Shown here one piece after another: positions 16,256 to 64,000 of a DNA stretch of 64,000 bases. Location of the stretch: positions 7,660 to 71,659 of the forward strand of contig CAYXVY010000079.1 in the NCBI GenBank assembly GCA_964468745.1, written 5' to 3'. The first letter of the stretch is position 1. Each line of letters begins with the position of its first letter. Source of the DNA: an uncultured Planctomycetales bacterium. GTDB taxonomy: Bacteria > Planctomycetota > MHYJ01 > JACPRB01. The notes beneath the pieces are model-generated. The model saw nothing but the letters and a program-made list of their open reading frames with translations. It searched no databases and was not told the DNA's origin. A program made the translations under genes and the position numbers.

Positions 16256-18253
16256 TTAGAAGTCGGCCTCCAGGGAGATCAGCACGCTGCGTTCGGCGCC
16301 CGGATTGAAAGCAGTGCCGGCGAAGCCGAGCCCGCCGCTTTCAAAATACTCGCGATCGAAGACGTTGTAGACCGCGAGCGACGCCAGTGCCTTCCCCCAG
16401 CGCACGCTGACCTTCGTGTCCATCAGCGCGTACTTCCCCAGCTTGGGGGCCGTGTTCGACGTGTCGCTGATCTGATAGCGGCTGCCGACGAAACGGCCAA
16501 GCAGCGTGAGATACACGTCGCTGTACGTGATCGTCGATCCGAGCAGCCCCTGGTGCGGCGGCGTGACGGGATAACGCTTTCCGTCCAGTCCGCTGCTCTT
16601 GATCACCGCGTCGGTATACGTGTAGACCCCGAAGATCTCCAGACCCACGGGGGTCTCCGGTTCGAGCGGCGTCAGGCGCACCTCCGCTTCGATGCCCCGA
16701 TGGCTCACGCGCTCGAAGTTGAAGTTCGTGCCGAAAAATCCGGACGACGGATTGAAGTAGATCTCGTTCTTGACGTTCATCCAATAGTACCCGAGGCCCG
16801 CGCTGCCCCACCTCGGCGACCAAAGCCTCACGCCCGTCTCGAACGAGTGGGCGCGCTCCGGCTGGAGCTCCGGATCGGACGCGCTGAATCCGACGAGCTC
16901 GTCGCGCGTCGGATACTTGAAGGGCCGGCCGTAGCTCGCGTAGATGCTCAACTCGTCCAGCGCGTGATACGTCGCGCCGAAGGCGGGGCTCACCTGCGAG
17001 AACGCCTTCTGCTTCTGGACAGCCGGGCTGAAGGCGGCGCCGCTGACGGCGCGATCGAGATCGAGCAGCGCGCGGTCCCAGCGGAGGCTGCCCGATAGGA
17101 CGAGCGCCTCGAGCGGGCGGACCTCGACATGGCCGAAGAGCCCAACCAGGCGGCGCACGTATTCGTTCTCCGTGCCCGCGGCGGAACCGAAGAAGACCGA
17201 GTCGGAGAGCGCATCCGAAGACTCGTGCACGAGGTCGGTGCCGACAGTGAGCTTCCAGGCGAGCCCGAGGAGATCGACGTCGAGCACGTCCTTCAAATGC
17301 AGCGCGATTTGCTTGTAGTCGTCCTCCGTGTCGAAGAAGTCGCCGCCGCCGAATTCGTCGTGAGCGTCGGATTCGCCGTCGAGGAAGCTGAGCTGCGCGG
17401 TGACGACGCCGAAATCGCCCCCCTCCCACGTGAAGAATACGTCGCCGTAGGCGTTTGCCGAATCGGCGTGGTCGTTCGGATTGACGGTCCCGGCGCGCCC
17501 TACGGCGGCGAGATCCGCCGGCGTCAACGTGCCCGGCCTGCGGCGTTCGTCGTCGTGCACACCGATTTTCAGCGCGAGGCGGAGCCCCTCGCCGAGCGGG
17601 TATTCCAGGTCGGCTGTCAGATCGACGGCGTCGTAACCGCTATTCTCGCGCCAGCCGTCGGTGTGCTGCGCGCCACCGAAGAGGCGGTATTCGAGGTCGT
17701 CGCATTTGCCGCTGACTTCAGCCGCGCCGTGCGCCGTGTTCCACGATCCCCCCTCTGCCAAGGCCCGCCACCTGGTCTCTTCCTTCTTCTCCCGCCGCGT
17801 GATGATGTTGATGACGCCGGCCAGTGCCGGGTCGCCGTAGAGCGCCGCGGCGCCGCCGCGCACGACCTCGATTCGTTCGACGTTTCGCAGCGGGATCGTC
17901 GCCCAATCTGTGCCGCCCGAGGTGGGACTGTTCGTGCGGCGCCCGTCCACGAGGACGAGCGTGCGCTGGCCATTTCCCGCCCCGTTGTTGTATCCGCGCA
18001 GGTCGAGCAGCGCATCGGCGCCGTGCGGGTTGGGGCCCTGAGCGAAAAATCCCGGCACCGTGCGGAGCACGTCGACGATGTTCGACGCGCCGCTCTTCTC
18101 GATCTGCTCGCGCGTGACGACGGTCACACCGGCGGCGACGTCGAGCACATCGCTTTCGCTGCGCGTCGCCACGACGACGACTTCCTTTTCCTTCTCCTGT
18201 TTCTTCTCGGTCGACTCCTGCGCCATGAGCACCGTAGCCAGAACCAGCCACAT
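16256..18253 (-). CDS. TonB-dependent outer-membrane receptor (BtuB-like, by context)
   Basis: Signal peptide MWLVLATVLMAQ; TonB-box-like VVVVATR; plug-domain motifs; C-terminal ...SLEADF. Start at ATG 18253, with GGAGG 5 nt upstream. The gene sits downstream of a cobalamin riboswitch. Confidence 0.85.
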   Translation of the reverse strand: MWLVLATVLMAQESTEKKQEKEKEVVVVATRSESDVLDVAAGVTVVTREQIEKSGASNIVDVLRTVPGFFAQGPNPHGADALLDLRGYNNGAGNGQRTLVLVDGRRTNSPTSGGTDWATIPLRNVERIEVVRGGAAALYGDPALAGVINIITRREKKEETRWRALAEGGSWNTAHGAAEVSGKCDDLEYRLFGGAQHTDGWRENSGYDAVDLTADLEYPLGEGLRLALKIGVHDDERRRPGTLTPADLAAVGRAGTVNPNDHADSANAYGDVFFTWEGGDFGVVTAQLSFLDGESDAHDEFGGGDFFDTEDDYKQIALHLKDVLDVDLLGLAWKLTVGTDLVHESSDALSDSVFFGSAAGTENEYVRRLVGLFGHVEVRPLEALVLSGSLRWDRALLDLDRAVSGAAFSPAVQKQKAFSQVSPAFGATYHALDELSIYASYGRPFKYPTRDELVGFSASDPELQPERAHSFETGVRLWSPRWGSAGLGYYWMNVKNEIYFNPSSGFFGTNFNFERVSHRGIEAEVRLTPLEPETPVGLEIFGVYTYTDAVIKSSGLDGKRYPVTPPHQGLLGSTITYSDVYLTLLGRFVGSRYQISDTSNTAPKLGKYALMDTKVSVRWGKALASLAVYNVFDREYFESGGLGFAGTAFNPGAERSVLISLEADF

Positions 18254-18299
18254 GGGATCCTCCGGACGCAAAGAGAGAACCAGAACGGCGTCAAGGGAC

Positions 18300-18500
18300 G
18301 ACACCCTGTGGTCCCCCCGGTCGCATTTCTTCGTCGAGAAGCGCGACCACGCTCACAGGCAGGTCTTCTGGCTTCTGGGCTACCTACTCCCCGGTCTTCC
18401 CGACGTTTGTCAGTGACCTGTGGGTTTCGTTCCCAGTTACAGCGGCGGGACCGCCTCGGCGTTTCACCGAGTTCCCTATTGAGCCCCGAGGGGCACCTGT
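18300..18500 (-). promoter_or_regulatory. Cobalamin (AdoCbl) riboswitch in the 5' leader of the TonB-dependent receptor / ABC importer operon
   Basis: The minus-strand RNA reads GGUGCCCCUCGGGGCUCAAUAGGGAACUCGGUGAAACGCCGAGGCGGUCCCGCCGCUGUAACUGGGAACGAAACCCACAGGUCACUG. This contains the conserved AAUAGGGAA, GGUGAAA, GCUGUAAC-GGGAA and B12-box-like GGUCACUG elements in the canonical order, located 50-250 nt upstream of the receptor start. Confidence 0.75.
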
Positions 18501-18509
18501 GATGGCGGT

Positions 18510-19088
18510 ATGATACGGGGCGTGGCCGAGGAGTCAACGACTGAAGCGCCCGTGCCGCCGCTGCCGATGTCGGCGAAGCTGTTGGGGATCGTCTTCGCGC
18601 TGATGGCGGGGATGAGCATTCCGTCGAGCCTGTTCTCGCTGGCGTGTGGGGGGCTGTTCGCCCTCGCCGGGCGGCCCGACATTCCACGAGAGGTCAAGTT
18701 CCTCGAGCCGGTGATCGATTGGGTCCTCGCATGGCACCTGCCGCTGACGCTGCTCGAACTCGTGTCGAGCACGATCGTGCTCGTGATTTCCGTGCAATTC
18801 CTGCGACGGCGCGGCTGGGCGCGCACGGGGATGGAGATCCTGAACTGGCTGGTGGCCGTGCTCCTCGTGCCGCTCGGCGTGGGGATGATGGTCTTCATGC
18901 GCGATATCCGCCGGTGGATGCCGCCCGAGCTCGACAGCAAACAGATTGAGGCGATCGATTTGATCGGCTCTATCTTCGGTTACGTCGGACTCGGAATGGG
19001 AATCCTGTTCGCTTTTTTCCACGTCGGCATCGCGCTCTATCTGCGGAAGAAGATCATCCGCGACGCGATGGTTCACAGGGCGGCCTAG
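18510..19088 (+). CDS. Small integral membrane protein (4 predicted TM helices), hypothetical
   Basis: Hydrophobic stretches LLGIVFALMAGM, VLAWHLPLTLLELVSSTIVLVI, LNWLVAVLLVPLGVGMMVF and GYVGLGMGILFAFFHVGIAL. Divergent from the riboswitch. The true start may be the internal ATG at 18567. Confidence 0.4.
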   Translation: MIRGVAEESTTEAPVPPLPMSAKLLGIVFALMAGMSIPSSLFSLACGGLFALAGRPDIPREVKFLEPVIDWVLAWHLPLTLLELVSSTIVLVISVQFLRRRGWARTGMEILNWLVAVLLVPLGVGMMVFMRDIRRWMPPELDSKQIEAIDLIGSIFGYVGLGMGILFAFFHVGIALYLRKKIIRDAMVHRAA

Positions 19089-31460: not shown

Positions 31461-31496
31461 GGGGGCGGAAGGGCAACCTTCCGCCCCTGTTTTTTA
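31461..31496 (+). terminator. Rho-independent terminator (GC stem plus T7 tract) after the lipoprotein gene
   Basis: GGGGGCGGAAGG-GCAA-CCTTCCGCCCC followed by TGTTTTTTAT. The egtD ATG starts immediately after the T-run. Confidence 0.7.
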
Positions 31497-32422
31497 TGGA
31501 CCGATTTACGCTCACCGAAACCCCGATCCGCGACTCGTTCGTCGAAGCGGTGCGGGCCGGGCTGGCGGCACGCCCGCGCAGCATCCCACCACGCTTTTTC
31601 TACGACGCCGCGGGGTCCGAGCTCTTCGAGAGAATCTGCGCGCTGCCCGAGTACTATGTCACGCGGACCGAGATCTCGATCCTCGATCGCCACGCCGCCG
31701 AGCTTCCGACGGCTCCGACCGTGATCGAGTTCGGGTGCGGCTACGGCGTGAAGACCCGCCTGCTGTTCGACGCGTTTTTCCGCACGCAAGACCGCATGAC
31801 GTACGTGCCGGTGGACATCTCGAAGAATGCGCTGACGGAGGCCGCGGGGCTCCTGCTGCGCGACTACGCGGGCCTGACGATTCGGGCGTTGCACGCGGAG
31901 TTCGATCGGGCGTTCGAGCTGCTGCCGCGCGAGCCCGCGCTCGTCCTTTTCCTGGGCTCGAACATCGGAAATTTCACGATCGACGAGGCCGTCCACTTTC
32001 TCGCGCGCCTTCGAGGCCACCGCGTGCTCGTGGGCTTCGACCGGGTCAAGGACCCGCACGTGCTGCACGCCGCCTACAACGATGCGGCCGGGGTCACCGC
32101 CGCGTTCAATCTCAATCTGCTGTCGCGCGTCAACCGGGAGCTCGGCGGCGCGTTCGATCTCGGGCGGTGGGAGCACCGGTCGTTCTACGACGAGCGGACG
32201 GACCGCATCGAAATGCACCTCGTCTCGAAGGCCGCGCAAAGCGTGCGCATCGCGGCGCTGGACCGGACCTTCTCCTTTGACGCCGGCGAGGGGATCCATA
32301 CGGAAAACTCTCACAAGTTCACGCCGGCCTCGATCGCGCGGATCGCCACGGAGAGCGGATTCCGGATCTCGCGCACCTGGTCGGACGAGAAAGAGTGGTT
32401 CTCGGTCGCGTTGCTAGAATAG
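31496..32422 (+). CDS. egtD: L-histidine N-alpha-methyltransferase (ergothioneine biosynthesis, EgtD)
   Basis: EgtD-family hallmarks: PPRFFYDAAGSELFERICALPEYYVTRTE, EFGCGYG, AAYNDAAGVTAAFNLNLLSRVNRELGGAFDL, RIEMHL. Length 308 aa. Confidence 0.9.
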   Translation: MDRFTLTETPIRDSFVEAVRAGLAARPRSIPPRFFYDAAGSELFERICALPEYYVTRTEISILDRHAAELPTAPTVIEFGCGYGVKTRLLFDAFFRTQDRMTYVPVDISKNALTEAAGLLLRDYAGLTIRALHAEFDRAFELLPREPALVLFLGSNIGNFTIDEAVHFLARLRGHRVLVGFDRVKDPHVLHAAYNDAAGVTAAFNLNLLSRVNRELGGAFDLGRWEHRSFYDERTDRIEMHLVSKAAQSVRIAALDRTFSFDAGEGIHTENSHKFTPASIARIATESGFRISRTWSDEKEWFSVALLE

Positions 32423-32426
32423 CTTC

Positions 32427-33728
32427 GTGATCGCCGGCATCGTCTCCTCGAAGCACCTCCTCGATGCGCTCACGGACGCGCGCAGGACGGAACTGGAGCT
32501 GCTCAACGGGTTCGCCGACGCCCAGCTGCTGGGAAAGAAGGCTCACTTTCTCGAGCCACCCATCTGGGAGATGGGGCACGTGGGCTGGTTCCAGGAGTAC
32601 TGGCTGCTGCGTCACCTGGACGGAGCGCGGTCGCTCTTCCCCGGCTCCGACGGCATCTACGACTCATTCAACGTTTCGTACAAGCTCCGCTGGGACCACC
32701 GTTATCCATCACGAGAGGAGACGCGCGCCTTCATCGACGAGGTCTTCGCGCGCAGCATCGGCCGGCTCGAATCGCGCGAACCGGAGCCCGACGACGCGTA
32801 CTTCTACACGCTTGCCGCCTTGCATGAAGACATGCACTCCGAAAATCTCGCCCTCGTCCTGCAGACGCTGGGGTACGCGAAACCCCGGCTTTCGGCTGCG
32901 GATGCGCGTTTCGTGCACCCTCGCGTCAATCCGGCGTGGACGCCGGCCGACGTTGCGGTGCCGGGAGGCCCGTTCATGCTCGGCGCCCCGCCGTCCGAGC
33001 CGTTCGTCTTCGACAACGAAAAGTGGGAGCATGGCGTCGAGGTGCAGCCCTTCCGGATCGCGACGACCCCCGTGACGAACGCCCAGTTCCAGGCATTCGT
33101 GGACGACGGCGGCTACCGGAGGCGCGAGTGCTGGAGCACGCGCGGCTGGGACTGGCGGCGACGAGAAGGCGCGGAACACCCTCTTTTCTGGGTTCGCGAC
33201 GCGACCGGCGGATGGTTCGAGCGCGCCTTCGACCTCGTCGTACCGCTGCGAGCCTGGCACCCGGCAGCGCATGTCAACTGGTACGAAGCCGAAGCGTGGT
33301 GCCGCTGGGCTGGCCGGCGCCTGCCGACCGAGGCGGAGTGGGAAATGGCGGCGACGCTGGACCCGGCGACCGGTCACAAGCGCCGCTTTCCCTGGGGCGA
33401 CGACTCGCCGACGGCGGCTCGCGCGAATCTCGATTTCCGGGCGGGGGGCACGATCGACGTGCGCGCGCTGCCCGCCGGCGACAGCCCCTGCGGCTGCCGG
33501 CAGATGATCGGAAACGTCTGGGAATGGGTCTCCGATACCTTCGAGGCCTACCCCGGATTCGAGCGCGACCCTTACAAGGAATACTCCCAGCCGTACTTCG
33601 GGAACAAGAAGGTCTTGAAGGGAGGCGGCTGGACGACGCGCTCGCGCCTCATCCGCGCCACGTGGCGCAACTTCTTCAAGCGGCAGCGCCGAAACGTCGT
33701 CGCCGGCTTCCGGACGGTGGCACGATGA
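32427..33728 (+). CDS. egtB: Ergothioneine biosynthesis sulfoxide synthase EgtB (DinB_2 N-terminal domain plus FGE-sulfatase C-terminal domain)
   Basis: DinB-like N-terminus (WEMGHVGWFQEYW), FGE-type C-terminus (GNVWEWVSD, KGGGWTT) and the EgtB-type ending NFFKRQRRNVVAGFRTVAR. GTG start 4 nt after the egtD stop. Confidence 0.9.
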   Translation: MIAGIVSSKHLLDALTDARRTELELLNGFADAQLLGKKAHFLEPPIWEMGHVGWFQEYWLLRHLDGARSLFPGSDGIYDSFNVSYKLRWDHRYPSREETRAFIDEVFARSIGRLESREPEPDDAYFYTLAALHEDMHSENLALVLQTLGYAKPRLSAADARFVHPRVNPAWTPADVAVPGGPFMLGAPPSEPFVFDNEKWEHGVEVQPFRIATTPVTNAQFQAFVDDGGYRRRECWSTRGWDWRRREGAEHPLFWVRDATGGWFERAFDLVVPLRAWHPAAHVNWYEAEAWCRWAGRRLPTEAEWEMAATLDPATGHKRRFPWGDDSPTAARANLDFRAGGTIDVRALPAGDSPCGCRQMIGNVWEWVSDTFEAYPGFERDPYKEYSQPYFGNKKVLKGGGWTTRSRLIRATWRNFFKRQRRNVVAGFRTVAR

Positions 33729-35102: not shown

Positions 35103-35318
35103 GTGGGCGACACCCTCAAGCGCAACAGGAAGGTTGAGGACCTCGAGGTCATCATCGACGAGCTCGCGCTGAAGCTCCGCGCGCTTGAGGAACTGTGCCT
35201 CAAGAAGAGGATGTTCACGCGGGCGGAGCTGCGCGCCTTGGCGCACGAGATCGACGCGGTGGACGGCCAGATGGACGGCCGGGTGAAGCGCTTCCACACG
35301 CCGCGCCGCGGCGATTAG
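35103..35318 (+). CDS. Small (71 aa) coiled-coil protein, hypothetical
   Basis: GTG-initiated ORF in a 435-bp gap. Heptad-like region VEDLEVIIDELALKLRALEELCLKK. No RBS identified. Weak call. Confidence 0.25.
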   Translation: MGDTLKRNRKVEDLEVIIDELALKLRALEELCLKKRMFTRAELRALAHEIDAVDGQMDGRVKRFHTPRRGD

Positions 35319-35323
35319 CCCTG

Positions 35324-36058
35324 ATGGGCGGCGACGCGACCACGATCGGAGGCGACGGCCGCACGTTTCCCGCAACGCGGTGGTCGCAGATCCGTGCGGC
35401 GGGCGATCCACGGTCGCCACGTCACCGCGAGGCGCTCGACGAGCTGTGTCGCGCATACTGGAAGCCCGCGTACGCATACCTGCGCTCGCTTCGCGATCTG
35501 TCGAACGAGGACGCGAAGGACCTCACGCAGGAGTTCCTCCTCGAGGCGATCGAGGGAGGCCTCCTCGCCCGGGTGCCGCGCGACGGGTCGGGCTTCCGCG
35601 CCTACCTCCGGGGCGCCCTGAAACTTTTCCTGCTCGAGCGACGCCGCGCGGCGGGGGCGCAGAAGCGCGGCGGCGACCGCACCCTCGTAAGTCTCGACGA
35701 CGCGGCGCTCGTCGAGCGGCATTCAGTGGGATCCGACCGCACCCCCGAGCAGGCGTTCGACGCCGAGTGGGCGCGCACGCTGATCGACCGCGCCGTCGAC
35801 GCCCTGAAACAGGAGCTGGCCGAGGGGGGGCGCGACGTCGTCTTCCGCGTCTTCGAGCGCTACGAGCTCAATCCGACGCCGGACGCCCCGACGTACGCTG
35901 CGATCGCGGCGGAATTCCGCGTCAACGAGACGGACGTGACGAACTGGCTCGCGTCGTGCCGCAAGCGGCTGCGCGCTCTCATCGAGGAACGGATCCGTGA
36001 CACCCTCGACAGCGAATCGGATCTCGCGACCGAGCTGCTCGACCTGTTCACGCGTTAG
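35324..36058 (+). CDS. ECF-type RNA polymerase sigma factor (Planctomycete/Verrucomicrobia-style TRWS region 2)
   Basis: N-terminal TRWSQIRAAGDP...REALDELCRAYWKPAYAYL matches the region-2 signature of this ECF subgroup. The C-terminal region contains an HTH-like segment. ATG at 35324. Confidence 0.65.
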   Translation: MGGDATTIGGDGRTFPATRWSQIRAAGDPRSPRHREALDELCRAYWKPAYAYLRSLRDLSNEDAKDLTQEFLLEAIEGGLLARVPRDGSGFRAYLRGALKLFLLERRRAAGAQKRGGDRTLVSLDDAALVERHSVGSDRTPEQAFDAEWARTLIDRAVDALKQELAEGGRDVVFRVFERYELNPTPDAPTYAAIAAEFRVNETDVTNWLASCRKRLRALIEERIRDTLDSESDLATELLDLFTR

Positions 36059-49224: not shown

Positions 49225-49701
49225 TTACTGTTTTGCCGCCGAAGGCGCGTACTCGATCGGAGCCGCGAACTCGATCCGCTCCATCTGCTCCTTCTTGCAC
49301 AAGTCCATGACCTTGATCACTTCCTGCCACGGCACTTCGGGCGTGGCATCGATCAGAACGGGGAATTCGGTCTTGCCTGCGCGCTTGAAGTCTCCCGACA
49401 TCGAGAGAATGATCTGCATGAGCTCCTGGTCCGTCGACACCGCGCCGCGGTTGCCCACCTTGCGGATCGTGTTGTTCGAACCGCCGTCCCAGCGCATGAA
49501 GACGCGAATTTCCTCGAGCACGACCTTGTCCACCTGCGTCTGGTTCACGCCGCGGTCCTTCGGGAGCCAGGTCTCGATCTTGCCTTCAAGCTGCTTGAAA
49601 TGCATCGAGCACATGAAGAACAGGCATAGACAGAAAATGATATCGACCATCGCCGTAACGTTGATCGATACTGGGTTGTCTTCGCCGCCGCCGCCAGCCA
49701 T
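49225..49701 (-). CDS. ExbD/TolR-family proton-channel accessory protein (copy 2)
   Basis: MVDIIFCLCLFFM matches the ExbD/TolR TM signature (PMIDVvFvLLiFFM). Periplasmic domain of the right size. Confidence 0.8.
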   Translation of the reverse strand: MAGGGGEDNPVSINVTAMVDIIFCLCLFFMCSMHFKQLEGKIETWLPKDRGVNQTQVDKVVLEEIRVFMRWDGGSNNTIRKVGNRGAVSTDQELMQIILSMSGDFKRAGKTEFPVLIDATPEVPWQEVIKVMDLCKKEQMERIEFAAPIEYAPSAAKQ

Positions 49702-49713
49702 ATCAATCTCCTA

Positions 49714-50250
49714 TCAGCTGCGCTTTTTCTTTTCGACCACGGGCATCGCCGCACCGACTTCGATCTTATAGATCCCGACCTTCGCGCACACGTTCATGGC
49801 GCGCTGTGCCAGACCGTACGGCGCCGAGAGGTCGGCCCGTATCTGCACCTTGCATTCCGAGACATGAGGGTTCTTCGGGTCGCGGCCGCGCGAACGGTCC
49901 GCTTCCTTCTTGAGCATGGCACCGAGCTTCTCGGGGTCCGAGAAATCCCGACCCTTGATGCCCACCTTCCAGTGCCGATCCTCGCGGCAGACCTGCTTCT
50001 TGTCGGCCGCCCCGCACTTGACCTCGTACACGTGGTACACGTTGACCGTGACGCGGTCCTGTTCCTTGCCCTCAAGCTGCTTGTCTTCCTTCACGGAAAA
50101 CGCCAGCGGAAGGGCCACCTCTTCGAGCTCGCGCTGACCCATGTCGGCGGAGAGCATGAAGAAAAGGAGCAGCAGGAACATGATGTCGATCATCGGCACC
50201 AGGTTCGGTGAGACGTTCTCGTCGATTGTGATCTTCGCCCTATGTGACAT
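49714..50250 (-). CDS. ExbD/TolR-family proton-channel accessory protein (copy 1)
   Basis: LVPMIDIMFLLLLFFML signature; 178 aa. Confidence 0.85.
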   Translation of the reverse strand: MSHRAKITIDENVSPNLVPMIDIMFLLLLFFMLSADMGQRELEEVALPLAFSVKEDKQLEGKEQDRVTVNVYHVYEVKCGAADKKQVCREDRHWKVGIKGRDFSDPEKLGAMLKKEADRSRGRDPKNPHVSECKVQIRADLSAPYGLAQRAMNVCAKVGIYKIEVGAAMPVVEKKKRS

Positions 50251-50261
50251 GTGTTACCTCG

Positions 50262-50999
50262 CTACTGCGCCCGCTGCTGTTGCTGCGCTTCCGGCGAAAG
50301 CGTCCGCGACAGGAGTTCGCCGATTTCGTTGTTGATGCGAAGCGTGAGATCCGACACCTTGTTCTTCAGGAAGAAGAAAATCGACAGGAACACGATCGCG
50401 ATGAACAGGCCGATCGTCGTGTTGACGAGCGACTCGTACACGCCGTGCGCCAGATCCGCCGGCGTCGGCGACTTCAGCGTCTCGATGACCTGGAAGCTCG
50501 AAATCATGCCCGTCACCGTGCCGAGCAGGCCCAGCAGCGGTCCGATGTTGCCGATGAGCGAAATGTAGCTCGCCTTTGCCTGCAGGCGGAACCCCTCGAC
50601 CGTGGCCGCCTCTTCCGCGCCCCTCTTCACTTCCTCGTAGCCGCCGAAGCTGCGACTGAGCGCGCCGGCGAGGACGCGTCCGCCGTAAGACTTGTCGGCC
50701 GAGGCGAGGGAGTACGCGCCATCCAAGTCGCCTTCCGTCAGGAGCGATTCGCACTCCGACAGCAGCGCCGGATTGGCCAGCTTCGATTCGCTGAAGTTCA
50801 CCATGTACTGGATCGCCAGCGCTGTCCCGATCAGAGATGTGATGACGAGCAGGATGCCGACCAGTCCCGTCGACTTGAACAGGTCGAACCAGCTCTTGCG
50901 CTGGTGTTCGACGGCGCCCTCCTCTTGGGCGAACGCGACCTCGCCGAACATGACCATAATGGCCAAGACACACATGACGGCTACCACGCGACGATTCAT
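50262..50999 (-). CDS. MotA/TolQ/ExbB-family proton channel protein
   Basis: Start at the internal ATG 50999 (MNRRVVAVMCVLAIMVMFG). Three TM helices with the family motif IGNIGPLLGLLGTVTGMISSF. Confidence 0.85.
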   Translation of the reverse strand: MNRRVVAVMCVLAIMVMFGEVAFAQEEGAVEHQRKSWFDLFKSTGLVGILLVITSLIGTALAIQYMVNFSESKLANPALLSECESLLTEGDLDGAYSLASADKSYGGRVLAGALSRSFGGYEEVKRGAEEAATVEGFRLQAKASYISLIGNIGPLLGLLGTVTGMISSFQVIETLKSPTPADLAHGVYESLVNTTIGLFIAIVFLSIFFFLKNKVSDLTLRINNEIGELLSRTLSPEAQQQQRAQ

Positions 51000-51100
51000 A
51001 GGTTCCTCCAATTGCGCGCTTCCACTATTGTGGGCGCGCATGGATCTGTTCCCAGCCAAGCACGCCCGGCCCGACCCCAGACAAAGGGTCTGGAATCAAT

Positions 51101-53377: not shown

Positions 53378-53381
<4 letters not shown>
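51306..53381 (-). CDS. Sensor histidine kinase: TM, periplasmic double-Cache-like domain, TM, HAMP, HisKA, HATPase_c
   Basis: ATG 53381 overlaps the stop of the upstream Ser/Thr kinase gene (ATGA). H-box IAHELGTPLNAISG; N/G boxes (LMNLFTNGMDAM, DTGRGM, GLGLGLAICRQIV). Two TM helices flank a ~300-aa periplasmic domain. Confidence 0.85.
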
Positions 53382-56011
<2,630 letters not shown>

Positions 56012-56096
56012 TCCTCTCCACTATAGCTGCGGAATTCCTCAAAGGCTTTCACCCGGATTGCAGCTGTTGTGGTACGAGTCATCAAGGAGGCGTTCC

Positions 56097-56795
56097 ATGA
56101 TCCGACTGCTGGCGGCATTCGTAGTTCTCGCGCTCCTGCAACAGGAGGACAAGGAACTGGCGGCATTCAAGCGCGACGCACTGAAACAGTACGCAGAGGG
56201 CGCGTGGAAAAAGATCGTGTGGCAGGCCGACATTCCGGCCGCGCTCACGAAGGCCCAGAAAGACGGAAGGCCGGTCCTCGCCGTGATCACGGTGGGGCAC
56301 ATGGGCAGGAAGGACGCGGCGGATTGCTGACTCGGGGGTCGCCTGACCCGGGGCAGTTCGCTCTCGGACGAGAAGGTGATCGCGAAACTCGACAAGGATT
56401 ACGTGTGCGTGATGCTCAATGTCACGGACGATGGCTTCCCCAAGGACGCGCCCGGCCTCAAGGCGTGGCAGGATGCGTATGAGAAGGATCCGAAATACCG
56501 TGTCGCGTACTCGACGAGCGTCGTGCTGGGCTCGAATGGCGGAGGCGCATTCGCGACATCCGGATGCGGCCACCAGCCCGAGTGGAAAGTGGCGATCAGC
56601 TATCAGCCCGACAAGTACCTCTCGTTCCTGACCGAGGCGCACGAGCGGTTCACGCGAGCGACCGCGATCACCCGGGATCTGACGATCGACAGGGCGACGC
56701 GGGAGGAGAAGCTGAAGGAGATCGCCGCGGCCTGCCTCGAGCAGATCACGGAGGCGGCCCGCTGCAAAGTGAAGGACGGCGAGCGCACCAAATAG
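56097..56795 (+). CDS. Periplasmic thioredoxin-like (Thioredoxin_7 / DsbD-gamma-like) protein with an in-frame TGA at 56328-56330, aligning to the first Cys of the CxxC motif. Candidate selenoprotein; alternatively a nonsense pseudogene.
   Basis: AAGGAGG RBS 7 nt upstream of ATG 56097. Signal peptide MIRLLAAFVVLALLQ. The sequence reads ...GRPVLAVITVGHMGRKDAADC-TGA-LGGRLTRGSSLSDEKVIAKLDKDYVCVMLNV in a single frame. Flanks align to GKPVLVDFyADWCgpCKmmdketFSDPEVikLLNenFVlVKvDv, with TGA falling at the first Cys of the CxxC position. A small hairpin (GGGTC-gcct-GACCC) lies just downstream. Confidence 0.5.
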
Positions 56796-56816
56796 CATCG
56801 CCTATATACTGCATGC

Positions 56817-59579
56817 GTGGCCGATGACAAGACGGAGCGCGCGGGCGAGTCCGCACACCCTGCCGCGCCGGCCCCGCAGACCCGGCAGCTCGGCAATTAC
56901 ACGCTGACACGCGAGATCGCGCGCGGTGGCATGGGAGTCGTTTTCGAGGCCGAGGACCTCAAGCTGCACCGTCGCGTTGCACTCAAGGTCGTTCGCGAGG
57001 GGGACGCGGACCCCGAGTTCATCGCGCGCCTCCATCGCGAGGCGACGATCGCCGCACAGTTGCGCCATCCGAACATCGTCGTCATCCACGAGGTCGGCAG
57101 CGCGCAAGATGTCGCCGGACAGCTGGTTCATTTCATCGCGATGGACTACGTCGAGGGGTGCACGCTCGCGGACGTGCAGCAGCGGAAGGAGACTTCCCGC
57201 GCGGACATGTTGCGCATGTATACGGACGTCGCACGCGCGGTCGCCTACGCGCACGAACGCGGCGTCGTCCATCGGGATCTCAAGCCGCAGAACGTGCTCG
57301 TCGGAACCGGAGGACACGTCTTCCTGAGCGACTTCGGGCTGGCACGCGCGGACTCGATCCGCACGCAGCTCACGCAGTCACAGTCGGTGATGGGGACGCC
57401 GATGTACATGGCGCCCGAGCAGGTCGAGGGACGGACGCGCGAGATCAGCGCACGCACCGACGTCTACGCGCTAGGCGTCATGCTCTTTGAGATCCTCTGC
57501 TCGCGCCCCCCATTCACCGACCTCATTCCCGCACATCTCTTCTGGCAGATCGTGCACGACGAACCGCCTCGCCCCGCGGACCTGGGCGCCACGGTGGCGC
57601 GCGACCTCGAAGTGATCTGCATGAAGGCGCTCGAGAAGGACCCTTTGCAGCGCTACGCGTCGGCCGCCGCACTCGCCGATGACGTGGATCGCTTCAGACG
57701 CGGTGAGCCGATCTTGGCGCAGCCCCCGAGCCTCGTGTACCGCCTTCGCAAGACGATCGTCCGGCGCAAGCGCATGCTTGCGGTCACGGGGATCACGCTG
57801 GTTTTTGCCGTTGCGGCGGTCGCCGCCCTTCTCGCGGAGCGGGGACGCGGCCTGAACGAATTGCGCAAGCGTACGCAGACGTCGCTCGACGCCGCTCTCG
57901 CCCTGCGACGCGCGGGCAGCGTCGAAGGTATGCAGCGGTTCGCGACAGAGACTGAGGACGCCTGCCGCGAAGCGATCGAGCGGAAACCTCGACTTGCGGA
58001 ACCGCACTACCTGCTGGGACGGATGCAACGCGCCCTGATGAAGGACGACGAGGCGCTCGCCGCGCAGGAACGGGCGCTCGCACTGGACGCGGATTTTGCC
58101 CCTGCGCTCTACGAGCGTGTCGTGCTCACGACGCGGCTGTATCGCTGGCGCGTGGAAGAACTCGTGCAATCGCGCTGGGGTGAGGAGGGGCACATCCTCG
58201 TCCGGCAGGAGCGGCAGGGCGCGCGCCGCATCCCCAGCCTGCCGGAGCTGGCAAAGGAAGATGCGCAGGCGCAAACACTGCGCCTACGTATCGACGCGGA
58301 CCTCAAACGCATCGACGAACTCGTCACGAACGGGGACTCGCGCATCGGCGCCGGCGAACTCGCCTGCGTGCGCGGGCTGCTCGCGTATGCGCGGGGGGAC
58401 GCGGCGACGGCGCGCGATCAGCTGGGGTCCGCCATTCGAATCGCCCCGACCCTCGAAGAGGCCTACGAGTCGCTGGCGAGCCTCGAATTGGACGGCGCTG
58501 GATACGAGGCCTCCGTCGAGTGGTTCACGAGGGGACTGGAGAAGGATCGCGGATACATCGGTCACATCGAGGGTCGCGCCCAGGCGCGCATGCTCTGGAC
58601 GATCGACTTGCGTCGGCGGAGCGAGGACGCTTCGAAACGGATCGACGAGACGATCGACGACGCAACCCAGGCCCTGCAGCGGGATCCAAACCGCACACGG
58701 GCGCGCTTCTGCCGCGGCATCGCGCTGATCTATCGCATCGAAGCGAAAGTCACGCGACGGGGCTACACCCCCGGGCTCTACGTCGACGCGCTCGCGGACT
58801 TCGCGGAGCTTTCCCGGCAGAAACCGGACGATCCCGACGGCTGGATCTGGCACGGTGCATGCACGATGGCCGAGGGGTATGCGCACTATGTGCGGGGCGA
58901 GGACCCCCGGGCGACCGCGCGAACGGCCATCGCCGACCTCGATCGCGCGACCGCGCTCGCTCCGTCGCTCGATCTGCCGTTCCTCTTTCGCGGAATCTGC
59001 CACGGCGTAATGTCGCTTTACGCGGTCACGCGCAAGGAGGATCCGGCGCAGCCGAGCGGCGAGGCCATCGCCGACCTCGATCGCGCGCTGGCGCTCAACG
59101 CGAACAGGGCGGAGACGTGGATGTGGCGGGGACTCGCGCGCGCGGCGCTGGCCGGGTATGCGGCGACGCGCGGCCAGGATCCCCTGCCGAATTACGACGC
59201 CGCGATGAAGGACCTCGACAAGTCGGTGGAGCTCGAACCCGGAAAGCCGGAGGTCTGGACGTGGCGCGGGCAGACGCGGGCCACGTGGGCGCTCTATCAG
59301 GCGATCCAGCTCAAGAATCCGATCGCAACCTACGAGCTTGCGATCCTGGACTTCGACCGCGCCCTGCAGATCAACGCCTCGCACGTGCACGCCCTGCGCA
59401 GTCGCGGCAACGCCCACGAGATGATCGGAATCACGCACCAGGTGCTGAAGCGCGACGCAACGGAGTCCTTCACGCGCGCGATCGCGGATTACGAAGCGGT
59501 GATAGGCATCGATCCGGAACTGGAGCCGGGAGTGCGCGGGCAGCTCGCGAACTGCAAGCGGCGGCTCGAGAAGAAGTAG
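56817..59579 (+). CDS. Ser/Thr protein kinase fused to TM and TPR-repeat domains
   Basis: GTG start. Kinase motifs ARGGMGVVFEA, HRDLKPQNVLV, DFGLAR, GTPMYMAPE; TM helix VTGITLVFAVAAVAALLA; about 600 aa of TPR repeats. Confidence 0.85.
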   Translation: MADDKTERAGESAHPAAPAPQTRQLGNYTLTREIARGGMGVVFEAEDLKLHRRVALKVVREGDADPEFIARLHREATIAAQLRHPNIVVIHEVGSAQDVAGQLVHFIAMDYVEGCTLADVQQRKETSRADMLRMYTDVARAVAYAHERGVVHRDLKPQNVLVGTGGHVFLSDFGLARADSIRTQLTQSQSVMGTPMYMAPEQVEGRTREISARTDVYALGVMLFEILCSRPPFTDLIPAHLFWQIVHDEPPRPADLGATVARDLEVICMKALEKDPLQRYASAAALADDVDRFRRGEPILAQPPSLVYRLRKTIVRRKRMLAVTGITLVFAVAAVAALLAERGRGLNELRKRTQTSLDAALALRRAGSVEGMQRFATETEDACREAIERKPRLAEPHYLLGRMQRALMKDDEALAAQERALALDADFAPALYERVVLTTRLYRWRVEELVQSRWGEEGHILVRQERQGARRIPSLPELAKEDAQAQTLRLRIDADLKRIDELVTNGDSRIGAGELACVRGLLAYARGDAATARDQLGSAIRIAPTLEEAYESLASLELDGAGYEASVEWFTRGLEKDRGYIGHIEGRAQARMLWTIDLRRRSEDASKRIDETIDDATQALQRDPNRTRARFCRGIALIYRIEAKVTRRGYTPGLYVDALADFAELSRQKPDDPDGWIWHGACTMAEGYAHYVRGEDPRATARTAIADLDRATALAPSLDLPFLFRGICHGVMSLYAVTRKEDPAQPSGEAIADLDRALALNANRAETWMWRGLARAALAGYAATRGQDPLPNYDAAMKDLDKSVELEPGKPEVWTWRGQTRATWALYQAIQLKNPIATYELAILDFDRALQINASHVHALRSRGNAHEMIGITHQVLKRDATESFTRAIADYEAVIGIDPELEPGVRGQLANCKRRLEKK

Positions 59580-59624: not shown

Positions 59625-60062
59625 TCAGTAGCGGAGGCCGGTCGGCTTCGGTCCGTCGTGGAAGAGGTGGCCCAGGTGCGAGTCGCACTTCGCGCAGACC
59701 GCCTCCGAGGCGCCCCCGTCCGGCTTCAGGGCGACGGCCCCCTTGATGGCATCGAAGAAGCTGGGCCAGTCGCAGGCCTCGTATTTCGTCTCCGACGTGA
59801 AGAGCGCCTGACCGCAGGCGCCGCAGGTGTAGATGCCCTTCGCCGTGTTGTACAGCAGCTTGCCGGTACCGGGCCGCTCCGTTCCTTGCCGGCGAAGAAT
59901 CTGGTACTGCTCCGGCGTCAGCTTCTTCTTGTAGTCCTCTTCGCTGCACGTCCCAACGGCGTCCTTCGCGGGTTTCATCTGCTCCTCGCTCGACGACGGC
60001 TTCGGCGAACAGCCCGTCCACGCGAGCATCGTCACCAACACCGCCGTCGCAATCTTCTTCAT
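59625..60062 (-). CDS. msrB: Peptide-methionine (R)-S-oxide reductase MsrB (SelR domain), lipoprotein
   Basis: Lipobox MKKIATAVLVTMLAWTGC. SelR motifs CGACGQALF...C...SHLGHLFHDGPKPTGLRY, including the zinc CxxC pairs. Confidence 0.85.
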   Translation of the reverse strand: MKKIATAVLVTMLAWTGCSPKPSSSEEQMKPAKDAVGTCSEEDYKKKLTPEQYQILRRQGTERPGTGKLLYNTAKGIYTCGACGQALFTSETKYEACDWPSFFDAIKGAVALKPDGGASEAVCAKCDSHLGHLFHDGPKPTGLRY

Positions 60063-60174
60063 GCGTCCACTTAACCGTACGCCCGCCGCCATTATTCCGG
60101 ATCTGACAATCGATTGCGCGCTCTTTCGCCTGTTTGTTCTCGGTCCGCTCGAAGCATGCTACAAGTAACGCCTC

Positions 60175-62029: not shown

Positions 62030-64000
62030 ATGGCCGGTTCGATCTGGAAAGCGGTTCACTTCAGCTCGAAGGCCGTTCCCGACGACACGCTCCTCGTCGC
62101 GAAGCTGGACGGGCATGAGCAGATCTCGAAGCCGTACCGATTCGAACTGGAGCTCCTCTCGCGGGACGTGGACATCGACTTCAAAAAAGTCCTGCGCGAA
62201 CCGGCGTGGATCGGCATCGAGCAGGGCGCGAGCGCCGGAGCCGCCGAGCCTCTGAAGATCCACGGACGCATCGCAACGTTTGAACAGGTCGAGGTGACGA
62301 CGGCCGGCGTGCGCTATCGAGCCGTCCTCGTTCCGCGCCTCTGGAAGCTGTCCCTGTCGTACCAGAGCCGCATCTTTCAGAAGCTCACGGTTCCAAAGAT
62401 CATCGAGCAGATCCTGCGCGAAGCTGGATTCGCCGCGGACGCATTCGAATTCAAGACGGCGCGCACCTATCCCGAACGCGAGTATGTCGTCCAGTACGAG
62501 GAAACCGATCTCGACTTCCTGTCGCGGTGGCTGGAACACGAAGGCATCTGGTACGTGTTCGAGCAGGGTGCGGCAGGGGAGAAGGTCATTTTCAGTGATG
62601 CGACGGCGCACTATCTGAAGCTGGCGGGGAAAGACTCCCTGCCCTTCCGCGCGGAGGGCCGCGGAATCGAGTGGGATGTGAACGGCCGGGCGGCGCAGGA
62701 GGAGTCGATTCACACGATCGCGTGCGCGCAGGCGCTCATCCCGAAGCAGGTGATCCTCAAGGACTACAACTGGCGCACGCCGGGGGTCGATTTGCGCTGC
62801 ACGTCGGAGGTGAGTCCGGACGGCGAGGGCGTGGTCTTCGAATACAACAACCACTATCGCACGCCGGACGAGGGCAAGGTGCTCGCGAAGATACGCGCGG
62901 AGGAACTTCTCGCGAGAGAGAAGGTGCTGCGCGGCGTCGGAAGCTGCCGGGCGTTCCGCGCCGGCGCGACGTGGGAGCTGTCGAACCACGCGCGGTCCGA
63001 TTTCAACGCGAAGCTGCTGCTCACCGAGGTGCGCCACCGGGCGACGCAGAGTCTCGCGCTCGACACGCGCTCGGCGACTCGCGCCGAGTACGCGAATGAG
63101 TTCGTGGGCGTCCCGGCCGACCGCACCTTTCGCGCACCACGTTCGACGGCATGGCCGGCGATCCACGGCACGATGCACGCGAAGGTCGATGCTTCCGGCA
63201 CCGGGCAGTACGCCGAGGTGGACGAGGAGGGCCGCTACAAGGTGAAGCTGCCCCTAGACCTGTCGAGCGCGGCGGCGGGGCAGGGCTCGCGCTGGATCCG
63301 CATGGCGCAGCCTTATGCCGGCGCGGACCACGGCATGCACTTCCCGCTGCACAAGGGGACCGAAGTGCTGCTGACGCACATCGACGGCGATCCGGACCGT
63401 CCCATCATCGCCGGAGCCGTTCCAAATGCCGAGACATCGAGCGTCGTCGGAAGCACGAATCAGACCGCCGGGGGCATCCGCACGGCAGGCGGTAATGAGA
63501 TCTCGATGAAAGACACCGACGGACACCAGAGCATCTTTCTGCGGGCGGGAAGCGGCCGGTCCGCGATCGTCGTGGGATCCGGATCCAACGAGCGAGTGGA
63601 CGTTTCGAGCGACAGCGCGATGGTTTCCACCGGCATTACATCGCTGTACTCGTACTTGATAAATGACACGGTCGGCGCGCTCGGCGCGAGCATCACGTCC
63701 GGCTATCCGAAGCTCCAGGCGGCGCTCTTCGGCGTGCGGCTCGGATTGGACTTCTGCGGGAAGCGGCTTCTCACTCCCCATCTTAAGGAGGACAAGGGAT
63801 GGGGCGAAGCGGGCGCGAAGGTCTGCGGCACACTCGTGGGGCTCGGAGGCACGATCATCGGCGCAGCGGTCAACATCCTCTACATGAAGAAGAACATCGA
63901 GCAGATCGTCGACAAGCTGGCGGTCGTCACGCCCAAGGCGATCGTCGGCGGCAAGGCGAAACAGTACGCCGTGAAGCTCTATCGCAAAGCGGGGAATTTT
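62030..64000 (+). CDS. vgrG: Type VI secretion system spike protein VgrG; 3' partial, runs off the window
   Basis: GGAGG 8 nt upstream of ATG 62030. VgrG hallmarks: YVVQYEETDLDFLSRWLEHEGIWYVFEQ (gp27-like) and RMAQPYAGADHGMHFPLHKGTEVLLTHIDGDPDRPIIAGAVPN (gp5 OB-fold region). The frame is open to position 64000. Confidence 0.85.
   Translation, partial: MAGSIWKAVHFSSKAVPDDTLLVAKLDGHEQISKPYRFELELLSRDVDIDFKKVLREPAWIGIEQGASAGAAEPLKIHGRIATFEQVEVTTAGVRYRAVLVPRLWKLSLSYQSRIFQKLTVPKIIEQILREAGFAADAFEFKTARTYPEREYVVQYEETDLDFLSRWLEHEGIWYVFEQGAAGEKVIFSDATAHYLKLAGKDSLPFRAEGRGIEWDVNGRAAQEESIHTIACAQALIPKQVILKDYNWRTPGVDLRCTSEVSPDGEGVVFEYNNHYRTPDEGKVLAKIRAEELLAREKVLRGVGSCRAFRAGATWELSNHARSDFNAKLLLTEVRHRATQSLALDTRSATRAEYANEFVGVPADRTFRAPRSTAWPAIHGTMHAKVDASGTGQYAEVDEEGRYKVKLPLDLSSAAAGQGSRWIRMAQPYAGADHGMHFPLHKGTEVLLTHIDGDPDRPIIAGAVPNAETSSVVGSTNQTAGGIRTAGGNEISMKDTDGHQSIFLRAGSGRSAIVVGSGSNERVDVSSDSAMVSTGITSLYSYLINDTVGALGASITSGYPKLQAALFGVRLGLDFCGKRLLTPHLKEDKGWGEAGAKVCGTLVGLGGTIIGAAVNILYMKKNIEQIVDKLAVVTPKAIVGGKAKQYAVKLYRKAGNF

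Follow-up and report, generated by a model that had tools for sequence, protein, structure and literature searches.

The forward-strand interval 56097-56795 is very probably one gene encoding an exported thioredoxin-fold selenoprotein of 232 residues, in which the UGA at 56328-56330 is read as selenocysteine (Sec). Comparison with homologous loci strongly supports the assignment of this in-frame TGA to Sec at the active site of a predicted secreted thioredoxin-fold protein. Among the evidence for this interpretation, the TGA occupies the same column in all 15 distinct loci, uninterrupted relatives place Cys in that column, and a hairpin that fits the bacterial SECIS model lies a short distance downstream under strong synonymous constraint.

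The reading frame and its in-frame TGA

The gene lies in a window of 64,000 nucleotides, by which we mean the whole stretch of DNA that was analysed. The open reading frame comprises 233 codons, from the ATG at 56097 to a TAG at 56793-56795, and an AAGGAGG ribosome-binding site ends 6 nt upstream of the start codon. The sole in-frame interruption is the TGA at 56328-56330, whose context is ...GRKDAADC-TGA-LGGRLTRGSSLSDEKV. The frame, its ribosome-binding site and its single interruption are thus as the initial annotation had described them, and so is the high GC3 that it reported for both halves (0.84 and 0.84, over 150 nt on each flank of the TGA). The signal peptide that it proposed fits the N-terminus, where residues 2-14 are strongly hydrophobic (mean Kyte-Doolittle value 2.74), and a comparable hydrophobic segment starts every full-length homologue; the protein is predicted to be exported to the periplasm. 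Full-length frames homologous to this one are present in 14 other distinct loci. In NCBI and the other sources, the annotation of the locus consists only of the C-terminal piece of 139 amino acids (P0001). Under the identical filter the 64-kb window has only one further site split by TGA, and this is the antisense shadow of the gene at 35195-36058. The features of the locus, all on the forward strand, are as follows.

56084-56090 (+): ribosome-binding site AAGGAGG, read directly from the sequence
56097-56795 (+): full coding sequence of the probable selenoprotein, 232 residues with Sec as residue 78, a single frame with one TGA, ending in TAG
56097-56144 (+): predicted N-terminal signal or anchor segment MIRLLAAFVVLALLQQ, from hydropathy and the similar segments of homologues; export would follow from it
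56325-56327 (+): TGC codon of Cys77, which adjoins Sec and would form a vicinal Cys-Sec pair; 12 of 15 loci have Cys at this position
56328-56330 (+): UGA codon of the putative Sec78; all 15 loci have TGA in this alignment column
56331-56792 (+): C-terminal part, from helix alpha-1 to the end of the predicted thioredoxin fold plus a helical tail, from family alignments
56346-56369 (+): nucleotide block ACCCGGGGCAGUUCGCUCUCGGAC, near-invariant, third-codon positions included, in an alignment of genomes of 50-71% GC
56348-56367 (+): SECIS-type hairpin, RNAalifold consensus, folding energy -9.5 kcal/mol

The putative Sec column and the downstream hairpin

The initial annotation had suggested looking at the same codon in orthologues. 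In all 15 distinct loci, which span 37-71% GC, the homologous codon is TGA and never TAA or TAG, although TGA is the stop of only 15 of 37 genes in the window; the proteins share 30-48% identity and the peptide is conserved on both flanks of the codon. The residue before the TGA is Cys in 12 of these loci, Thr in two (L011 and L012) and Leu in one (L016). Among the continuous homologues, 12 of 14 have Cys in the Sec column, encoded by TGC or TGT, so that the dipeptide at the site reads C-C, A-C or Y-C (for example RC-C-LGGR, QC-C-FGGR, QA-C-LGAR and QY-C-DGGR). The Gly two residues after Sec is invariant across the family. The family motif is usually C-U-x-G-G, with U-L-G-G from Sec onwards in the window protein, and the position of the second Cys of a CxxC motif is held by Gly, or by Ala, Ser, Phe or Asn in a few members. 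Further conserved blocks of the C-terminal part are LSD..VI, LN.TD.GFP and F.TSVV..PDG, as seen in family alignments.

Which RNA element might direct recoding? A small hairpin just 3' of the UGA had been singled out earlier. It is indeed present in the window (GGGUC-GCCU-GACCC, approximately 56336-56349), but it is not conserved in homologues, and the relevant structure is the next one, at 56348-56367. Its 5' arm is CCGGGGC (56348-56354), its loop AGUUC (56355-56359), and its 3' arm runs from GC (56360-56361) past a bulged U (56362) to CUCGG (56363-56367). The hairpin satisfies all four constraints of the published bSECIS model as quoted in PMC13188914 (Fig. 2A). The model asks for an upper stem of 4-16 bp capped by an apical loop of 3-9 nt, and the hairpin has a 5-nt loop and a 7-bp stem with one bulged U. 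It places a G at loop position 1 or 2, usually followed by G or U, and here G stands at position 2 and is followed by U (A-G-U-U-C). The distance from UGA to apical loop, set at 16-37 nt, is 24 nt (from 56330 to 56355), and the minimum free energy, set at or below -7.5 kcal/mol, is -9.5 kcal/mol. The search for a SECIS element that the initial annotation had proposed therefore yields a hairpin of the expected geometry, and synonymous change over it is suppressed: from codon +6 to +13, synonymous codon identity is 207/257 (0.81) as against 1136/2578 (0.44) over the remaining codons. The profile along the gene has its single maximum here, and of 127 eight-codon windows the 11 highest-ranking all overlap this region.

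Divergent members keep a hairpin at an equal offset, rebuilt from different bases: GAGAGC-AUCU-GCUCUU in L015, GAGGAC-AGUU-GUCCUC in L016, and CCGGAGCA-GUG-UGCUC(U)CGG in L011 and L012. The loop-G rule is also satisfied by L016 (AGUU) and by L011 and L012 (GUG); it fails in L015 (AUCU) and in L021, where the hairpin is not kept. By stability the hairpin ranks first of 628 windows within the gene of L015 and first of 637 within that of L016, and its median rank across 13 loci is 2.7% of within-gene windows. Covariation in favour of the hairpin comes from the divergent subgroups only, and the main, highly conserved subgroup contains no strict double compensatory change for any pair. Of three Cys-type genes, two lack a hairpin at the same offset and one (L024) has a stable one. 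Because the folding z-score of the whole region is unremarkable in this 66% GC sequence (z = -0.04), we relied on within-gene ranks and synonymous-site tests. Rfam gave no SECIS match at gathering or permissive thresholds, which is uninformative since Rfam covers bacterial SECIS elements poorly.

How might the UGA be decoded? As in the established bacterial pathway, the mRNA hairpin at 56348-56367, within the coding region, would be bound by SelB together with its Sec-tRNA(Sec), and Sec would be delivered to the ribosome at the UGA, so that termination is averted. Such a mechanism would not be new; thioredoxin-fold selenoproteins with a SECIS in the coding region are already well known.

Fold, active site and competing explanations

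The resemblance of the flanks to Thioredoxin_7 that the initial annotation had noticed is real but weak: the window protein scores 17.8 bits against PF13899, where the gathering threshold is 27, and only over residues 42-66. Pfam gives no match to PF03190, and the only relatives that pass Pfam thresholds, by a small margin, are two of the Cys type (P0118, 28.4 bits; P0087, 31.9 bits). A C-x-x-C redox motif is absent from the window protein, which has U-L-G-G instead. Because its score does not reach the Pfam threshold for Thioredoxin_7 and its second Cys is missing, the protein is a distant relative of Thioredoxin_7 and not a member. The proposal that the TGA falls on the first Cys of CxxC is borne out by a profile search of the PDB, in which the Sec column aligns to the first Cys of C-H-W-C in the DUF255 structures 3ira_A and 7tkv_A. 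The fold was modelled on P0053, the closest CC-type Cys form, which is 34% identical to the window protein. In the AF2 model (pLDDT 87.8, pTM 0.84) Cys88, the equivalent of Sec, lies at the start of helix 89-96 and caps helix alpha-1, and the Foldseek matches are DsbH 7tkv (E 1e-4), 3f9u, ERp19, 3ira and AGR2/3. The model supports a predicted thioredoxin fold in which helix alpha-1 is N-capped by the active-site residue. Sec78 would thus take up this N-terminal cap, where DUF255/DsbH/Thioredoxin_7 domains have the nucleophilic first Cys of CxxC, with Gly in place of the resolving second Cys. Because Cys directly precedes Sec in most members, the reactive centre is best regarded as a vicinal Cys-Sec pair (C-U-x-G-G). 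Such a centre could chelate a soft metal(loid), or its redox cycle could pass through a selenenylsulfide.

Could the TGA instead be a true stop that has been conserved? In that case two proteins would be made from the locus, one a secreted peptide of ~77 residues and the other a product of ~139-150 residues, possibly linked by termination-reinitiation coupling. Gene callers in every source do give two ORFs, and in the subfamily of L011 and L012 the TGA is directly followed by ATG (TGA-ATG), an arrangement known at reinitiation junctions. However, across the loci the first start codon downstream of the TGA lies anywhere from +1 to +16 codons away, no conserved ribosome-binding site accompanies it, and the stop is TGA throughout, in the genomes of 37% and 41% GC as well, with TAA and TAG never used. 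Two separate products would also divide the modelled thioredoxin fold between strand beta-1 and helix alpha-1 and leave the downstream piece without a signal peptide, while continuous homologues have Cys exactly at the TGA column. We consider a two-protein arrangement improbable. Little probability also attaches to readthrough of the UGA without selenium, in which another residue would be inserted by a near-cognate tRNA for Trp, Cys or Arg, or owing to a local suppression signal, and the hairpin would be a generic stimulator. Hairpins 3' of stop codons are able to stimulate read-through, and no Sec machinery was found in the available sequence: ARAGORN detected no tRNA-Sec in the 64-kb window or in nine loci, Pfam models of SelA, SelB and SelD matched none of about 40 window genes scanned, and neither the window nor any fetched locus contains selA, selB, selD or tRNA-Sec. 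Against this explanation, the column is Cys in the homologues that lack the TGA and is the catalytic position of a redox fold, which together form a specific signature of Sec/Cys exchange, and the hairpin has SelB-type bSECIS geometry, including the loop GU. Nor is UGA reassigned, because TGA is the ordinary stop of 15 of 37 ordinary genes in the window.

A last possibility is that a Cys-containing gene of thioredoxin-like type has become a pseudogene, has acquired a nonsense mutation or has been misread in sequencing or assembly. The sequence does come from a metagenome-assembled contig, and a single change from TGC to TGA would suffice; however, a second, independent assembly (Logan, run SRR9952630, L001) shows 100% identity across 401 nt, TGA included, which excludes the base-call error that the initial annotation had wished to see checked. 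In addition, the same TGA occurs in the 14 other distinct loci, from unrelated samples, and both halves are still under coding constraint. The comparative data effectively refute decay or error, to which we assign a negligible probability, and the earlier preference for Sec recoding over decay is upheld.

Relation to known proteins, distribution and possible function

The fold and active-site layout of the protein are those of DUF255/Thioredox_DsbH (PF03190) and Thioredoxin_7 (PF13899; 3ira, 7tkv, 2ju5, 3f9u), whose structures are the best Foldseek and profile matches. Both the strand beta-1 lead-in, W..I.W...A...A....KP(I/L), and the stretch from helix alpha-1 to strand beta-2, (S/T)(L/F)SD..V....N..FV.(I/V)..(N/D), can be aligned. 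Unlike these domains, the family has an insertion in the loop before the active site, C-U-x-G-G instead of C-x-x-C with the second Cys changed to Gly, and F-A/S-T-S at the canonical cis-Pro position before strand beta-3. The structural neighbours AGR2, AGR3 and ERp19 (TXNDC12) belong to the secretory pathway and are exported or luminal, comparable to the predicted export here, and the active site of AGR2/3 has one Cys only (CxxS), but all are eukaryotic, lack both Sec and a vicinal Cys, and are only 12-19% identical. A vicinal Cys-Sec pair flanked by Gly is also found in mammalian thioredoxin reductase, whose C-terminal Gly-Cys-Sec-Gly cycles between selenolthiol and selenenylsulfide. That enzyme, however, has an unrelated fold, carries its centre on a flexible C-terminal tail, uses a eukaryotic SECIS in the 3'-UTR and is cytosolic or mitochondrial and not exported.

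The sole catalogued selenoprotein of the Thioredoxin_7 type is the Trx7/PDZ domain-containing selenoprotein (NF041199; PF13899; motif CxxU), which was likewise predicted from metagenomes (PMC13188914, PMC9312934). Its Sec takes the second position of the motif, whereas here Sec comes first; Pfam finds no PDZ domain in the window protein, and NF041199 does not match it at E <= 1. Adjacent Cys and Sec also characterize the CU-motif selenoproteins SaoL, SaoB, SaoC, HgcA, some MerT and KCU-star (Haft & Gwadz, bioRxiv 10.1101/2022.07.06.499078). As in those families, there is a Cys-Sec dipeptide (Cys77-Sec78 here, CU in 12 of 15 loci and T-U or L-U in three), database copies are typically truncated at the CU site, Cys forms carry CC, and some gene neighbourhoods are suggestive of metal(loid) handling. 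The present family nevertheless has no sequence homology to them and a different fold, and its suggested link to heavy metals comes from a minority of loci. Haft & Gwadz (10.1101/2022.07.06.499078) also mention 'redoxin domain' proteins with a CU motif, a family to which WP_012872293.1 is related, and our family may be the same; Pfam gives no Redoxin match (PF08534).

How widespread is the family? An exhaustive HMMER search with a profile of the C-terminal part (56331-56792) returned 241 clusters, counted at 50% identity, among 1.84 billion representatives. Among the 159 clusters inspected, ~114 are Sec-type in appearance (split) and 12 are Cys-type, and about 90% of family members appear to use Sec. 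Word-indexed homology searches recovered C-terminal fragments only and none of the Cys forms, which were found by the exhaustive search. All database copies examined are annotated as one or two truncated hypothetical proteins, no model of NCBIfam release 20.0 matches the window protein (E <= 1), and the family is absent from the 119 families of the 2026 selenoprotein catalogue. It thus appears to be a large and widespread family that current selenoprotein catalogues do not list.

What might such a protein do? Some neighbouring genes suggest metal(loid) handling, namely a Se/Te-type TPMT in L016, a TehB/TPMT-like gene in L008, YbjQ in L002, and a MerR-type regulator with ArsR-GAPDH-ArsJ in L022 and L023. 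The window and about a dozen other loci show no such neighbours, and no neighbour gene is universal among the loci examined. As the gene neighbourhoods are not conserved, function is weakly constrained. We tentatively suggest that the protein acts in the periplasm through its selenol, either reducing or binding chalcogen or metal(loid) compounds. A fuller and more doubtful proposal is that these exported thioredoxin-fold proteins, most of them with Sec, form a family not described before, in which Cys-Sec has replaced CxxC and the selenol binds or reduces soft metal(loid)s or chalcogens (Hg, As, Se, Te) in the periplasm; as part of this same speculative proposal, the protein would not be a classical thiol-disulfide oxidoreductase.

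The family appears to be missing from the resources by which selenoproteins are recognized. With the family recognized, hundreds of gene models would be put right, and the selenoproteomes of GC-rich soil, groundwater and Planctomycetota-like bacteria would gain an exported selenoprotein. The family also offers a natural Cys-Sec centre at the CxxC position, in which selenenylsulfide chemistry can be compared with that of a disulfide. If the link to metal(loid)s or chalcogens is confirmed, selenium use would be tied to detoxification in the cell envelope, and a metal(loid) binder or reductase of this kind would add a new element to the envelope defence of many environmental bacteria against metal(loid)s.

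A reading frame with one conserved internal UGA

As the initial annotation had proposed, the gene under study is a single frame with a ribosome-binding site and one internal stop, TGA 56328-56330. This was confirmed by reading 55900-57000 and by translating 56097-56798, where the stop is flanked as VITVGHMGRKDAADC-TGA-LGGRLTRGSSLSDEKVIAKL.

56084-56090 (+), ribosome-binding site AAGGAGG, 6 nt ahead of the ATG at 56097
56097-56795 (+), selenoprotein-candidate frame, ATG 56097, 233 codons, closed by TAG 56793-56795

Residues 2-14 of the product are strongly hydrophobic. The coding-type composition claimed for both halves holds, GC3 being 0.84 in the 150 nt on each side of the TGA. A scan of the full window for TGA codons with coding-type flanks returned this codon and one antisense artefact only; the latter, at 35723 (-), runs antisense to the 35195-36058 (+) gene, whose shadow frame most likely explains it. 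TGA terminates 15 of the 37 GC3-supported genes of the window and is thus an ordinary terminator in this genome, so the codon has not been reassigned. A base-call error, named beforehand as a way in which the proposal might fail, is countered by a separate Logan assembly (run SRR9952630) that is identical over 401 nt, TGA included. The NCBI entry for the gene consists of a 139-aa C-terminal fragment alone (P0001); hence the gene has no selenoprotein annotation there.

The same truncation recurs among relatives. The initial homology search returned only proteins of ~140 aa, all covering the part after the TGA, and on their contigs an ORF of ~85 aa in the same frame ends 12-15 nt upstream of them. 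DNA of related loci was drawn from collections of genomes and metagenomes and, for further loci, obtained through exact look-up of proteins. All 15 distinct sequences have TGA at the homologous codon, and none has TAA or TAG (the window, L002, L003 (= L007), L004, L005, L006, L008, L009, L011, L012, L013 (= L014), L015, L016, L017 and L021; L017, which encodes the same protein as L018-L020, is counted once). These loci share 30-48% protein identity with the window protein and span 37%-71% GC. Peptide conservation extends to both flanks of Sec, ...KP(I/L)xVxxVVGKxxxKxAx(D/E)C-U-LGGx(L/I)TRGSSLSD(D/E)KVI..., and the preceding residue is Cys in 12 of the 15, Thr or Leu in the remainder. One locus, L021:3-1472 on a 41% GC contig, has a V-C-TGA-LGGRIM site preceded, in the same frame, by a fused low-complexity N-terminal extension (330 residues or more) in which Q, N, S and P abound.

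An exhaustive HMMER census of 1.84 billion representatives, queried with a profile of the C-terminal part, gave 241 clusters at E <= 1e-3, of which 126 reach E <= 1e-10. Among 159 classified representatives, 114 start within a few residues past the Sec column, the pattern that gene callers give when a TGA interrupts the frame; another 20 begin inside the domain as fragments, and 14 are continuous, N-terminal part included. Twelve of these 14 have Cys exactly at the Sec column, in sites such as RC-C-LGGR, QC-C-FGGR, AC-C-PGGR, PC-C-AGGR, QA-C-LGAR, QY-C-DGGR, KY-C-EGSQ and H-C-GGSE, and the codon is TGC, TGC and TGT in the three Cys-type genes with DNA. The family therefore displays a classical Sec/Cys pair. 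The continuous proteins P0118, with Gly at this column and the preceding Cys kept (PC-G-AGGR), and P0064, without any Cys (TRSSVRLIRSTVLSD), may be inactive or re-purposed members. Overall the family appears to be ~90% Sec-type, verified at the DNA level for 15 loci.

A SECIS-type hairpin downstream of the UGA

The segment ACCCGGGGCAGUUCGCUCUCGGAC (56346-56369) is near-invariant in its nucleotides, third-codon positions included, across genomes of 50-71% GC, and RNAalifold folds it into a hairpin.

56348-56367 (+), SECIS-type hairpin, 7-bp stem with one bulged U, loop AGUUC

The bacterial SECIS model (PMC13188914) specifies a 3-9-nt loop capping a 4-16-bp stem (here 5 nt and 7 bp), G within the first two loop positions and then G or U (A-G-U), a UGA spacing of 16-37 nt (24 nt) and an MFE <= -7.5 kcal/mol (-9.5 kcal/mol); all four constraints hold for the element 3' of the UGA. 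Within the main subgroup stem changes are one-sided and keep pairing (G-U to A-U twice, C-G to U-G, G-C to G-U), with no double compensatory changes. Members with a divergent peptide have a hairpin at the same offset built from other bases: GAGAGC-AUCU-GCUCUU in L015 (37% GC), GAGGAC-AGUU-GUCCUC in L016, and CCGGAGCA-GUG-UGCUC(U)CGG with a shifted bulge in L011 and L012. The loop G is absent in L015 and the hairpin is not kept in L021. A within-gene stability control placed the 26-nt window at the hairpin offset at a median rank of 2.7% among all windows, and it is the most stable of all in L015 (628 windows) and L016 (637 windows); combining five different hairpin types by Fisher's method gives p ~1e-5, approximate because of window overlap. 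Synonymous identity of same-residue pairs is 207/257 (0.81) at codons +6 to +13 vs 1136/2578 (0.44) over the gene's other codons, and the top 11 of 127 eight-codon windows all overlap the hairpin region. One of the three Cys-type genes, that of P0096 (L024:4001-4786), has a stable hairpin at the SECIS offset (-11.1 kcal/mol, top 6% of the gene's windows), perhaps left over from a recent switch of Sec to Cys, or due to chance. An Rfam search found no family matching the hairpin.

A probable Cys-Sec centre in a thioredoxin fold

The protein had been described as Thioredoxin_7-like with Sec at the first Cys of CxxC. The placement stands, but the family assignment is looser: the Pfam Thioredoxin_7 match is sub-threshold (17.8 bits vs 27) and stops ahead of the TGA, and the second Cys is replaced by Gly. 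NCBIfam gave no match to the window protein at E <= 1. Two Cys-type relatives lie barely above threshold, with Thioredoxin_7 at 28.4 bits and Thioredox_DsbH/DUF255 at 31.9 bits. Against the PDB the family profile matches 3ira_A, a DUF255 domain (E 1.1e-4), and 7tkv_A, a DsbH domain, aligning the Sec column with the first Cys of C-H-W-C and Gly with the second. A confident AlphaFold2 model of P0053, a CC-type homologue from a Planctomycetota MAG (pLDDT 87.8, pTM 0.84), has the thioredoxin order beta-alpha-beta-alpha-beta-beta-alpha, with Cys88, the Sec equivalent, N-capping helix 89-96; Foldseek of this model against the PDB returned thioredoxin-fold proteins only (DsbH, Thioredoxin_7, ERp19, AGR2/3 group). 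Alignment, model and Foldseek together thus make the placement of Sec on the first CxxC Cys correct. The family is a distant relative, not a member, of the DUF255/DsbH/Thioredoxin_7 Pfam families, and has C-U-x-G-G as its centre, the Gly at +2 being invariant.

The UGA is conserved, paired with Cys in homologues, followed by an RNA-constrained SECIS-type hairpin and located at the active site of a thioredoxin fold. These observations support the recoding first proposed, and we consider it very probable that UGA 56328-56330 encodes Sec. Bacterial Sec insertion proceeds through SelA, SelB, SelC and SelD. By analogy, SelB with GTP and Sec-tRNA(Sec) would bind the hairpin as the ribosome arrives at the UGA, and Sec78 would be inserted from this complex, in line with the established SelA, SelB, SelC and SelD pathway (PMC13188914); the hydrophobic N-terminus would then direct export of the protein.

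What might such a centre do? With the resolving Cys of CxxC missing and a Cys usually preceding Sec, the simplest chemistry would be a vicinal selenolthiol/selenenylsulfide couple or a soft-metal chelating pair. The proposed Cys-Sec couple would resemble that of mammalian thioredoxin reductase, whose Gly-Cys-Sec-Gly centre forms a vicinal selenolthiol/selenenylsulfide couple. CU and CC motifs have been argued to indicate heavy-metal binding (Haft & Gwadz, bioRxiv 10.1101/2022.07.06.499078).

Gene neighbourhoods and place among known selenoproteins

None of the neighbours in the window suggests an operon partner.

53378-56011 (-), Ser/Thr kinase-TPR gene flanking the selenoprotein gene, paralogue of 56817-59579
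56817-59579 (+), Ser/Thr kinase-TPR gene flanking the selenoprotein gene, paralogue of 53378-56011
59625-60092 (-), MsrB (SelR domain, E 3e-31), 3 kb downstream of the selenoprotein gene

The kinase-TPR paralogues (877 and 920 aa) have very similar N-terminal halves and belong to five Ser/Thr protein kinases within 64 kb (2713-4866, 9223-10449, 10077-13556, 53378-56011 (-), 56817-59579). MsrB, with an N-terminal extension of ~57 residues, would be a second redox-repair protein, possibly exported. Elsewhere the window holds a cluster that looks like a B12 uptake operon (13679-18515 (-)).

18341-18515 (-), cobalamin riboswitch, 120.6 bits, directly upstream of the TonB-dependent receptor
16256-18304 (-), TonB-dependent receptor, after the riboswitch
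15494-16255 (-), ABC ATPase, after the receptor
14674-15494 (-), unassigned gap between ABC ATPase and FecCD permease
13679-14674 (-), FecCD permease, last in the cluster

An EgtD-like histidine methyltransferase (Methyltransf_33, E 3e-106) adjoins an EgtB-like FGE-sulfatase/DinB_2 protein at 31496-33728 (+), a putative ergothioneine-type, or perhaps selenoneine-type, biosynthesis pair. An ExbB-ExbD-ExbD cluster lies at 49225-51059 (-), and a VgrG-like protein (Phage_GPD + Phage_base_V; 62030-64000 (+)) extends past the window end.

Among the loci compared, no neighbour is common to all, but a number of them are suggestive. In L016 a divergent TPMT gene (846-1424 (-)) lies directly upstream, scoring just under the TIGR03840 'TMPT_Se_Te' cutoff (223.0 vs 223.2 bits) with a match that begins at profile position 22, and an SMR gene lies downstream; in L008 a divergent TehB/TPMT-like SAM methyltransferase (4949-5653 (-)) lies 75 nt upstream. 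These two very different Sec-type members thus both have a divergent TPMT/TehB-type methyltransferase directly upstream. A YbjQ 'putative heavy-metal-binding' gene follows the family member in L002, and a divergent DJ-1/PfpI gene lies beside it in L017. The CC form P0053 (L022:1592-5693, L023:3-4023) is preceded at 48 nt by a MerR-family regulator of the metal type in the same orientation. P0053 also adjoins a divergent cluster for arsenate resistance, ArsR-GAPDH-ArsJ, with ArsJ at 559 bits. Elsewhere the neighbours are unrelated. We regard a metal(loid)/chalcogen function of the family as a tentative hypothesis, less likely than not.

A 2026 review lists 119 prokaryotic selenoprotein families/subfamilies with models and motifs, among which Trx7/PDZ (NF041199, CxxU) alone is of the Thioredoxin_7 type; that family differs in Sec position and domain content, and its model does not match the window protein. 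The CU-motif families SaoL, SaoC, HgcA, MbdU, KCU-star and Csac_0668 are not homologous to it. Haft & Gwadz (bioRxiv 10.1101/2022.07.06.499078) also refer to a 'redoxin domain' family with a CU motif, to which WP_012872293.1 is related; judged by domain content, identity with it is unlikely, since no member tested here has a Redoxin-domain match. As the family is apparently uncatalogued and the gene carries no selenoprotein annotation, we see in it a new family within a well-known kind, thioredoxin-fold selenoproteins decoded via a coding-region SECIS. The mechanism is not new; what is described here is a large, widespread, predominantly Sec-containing and apparently uncatalogued family that is systematically mis-annotated and in which an unusual Cys-Sec centre occupies the place of CxxC.
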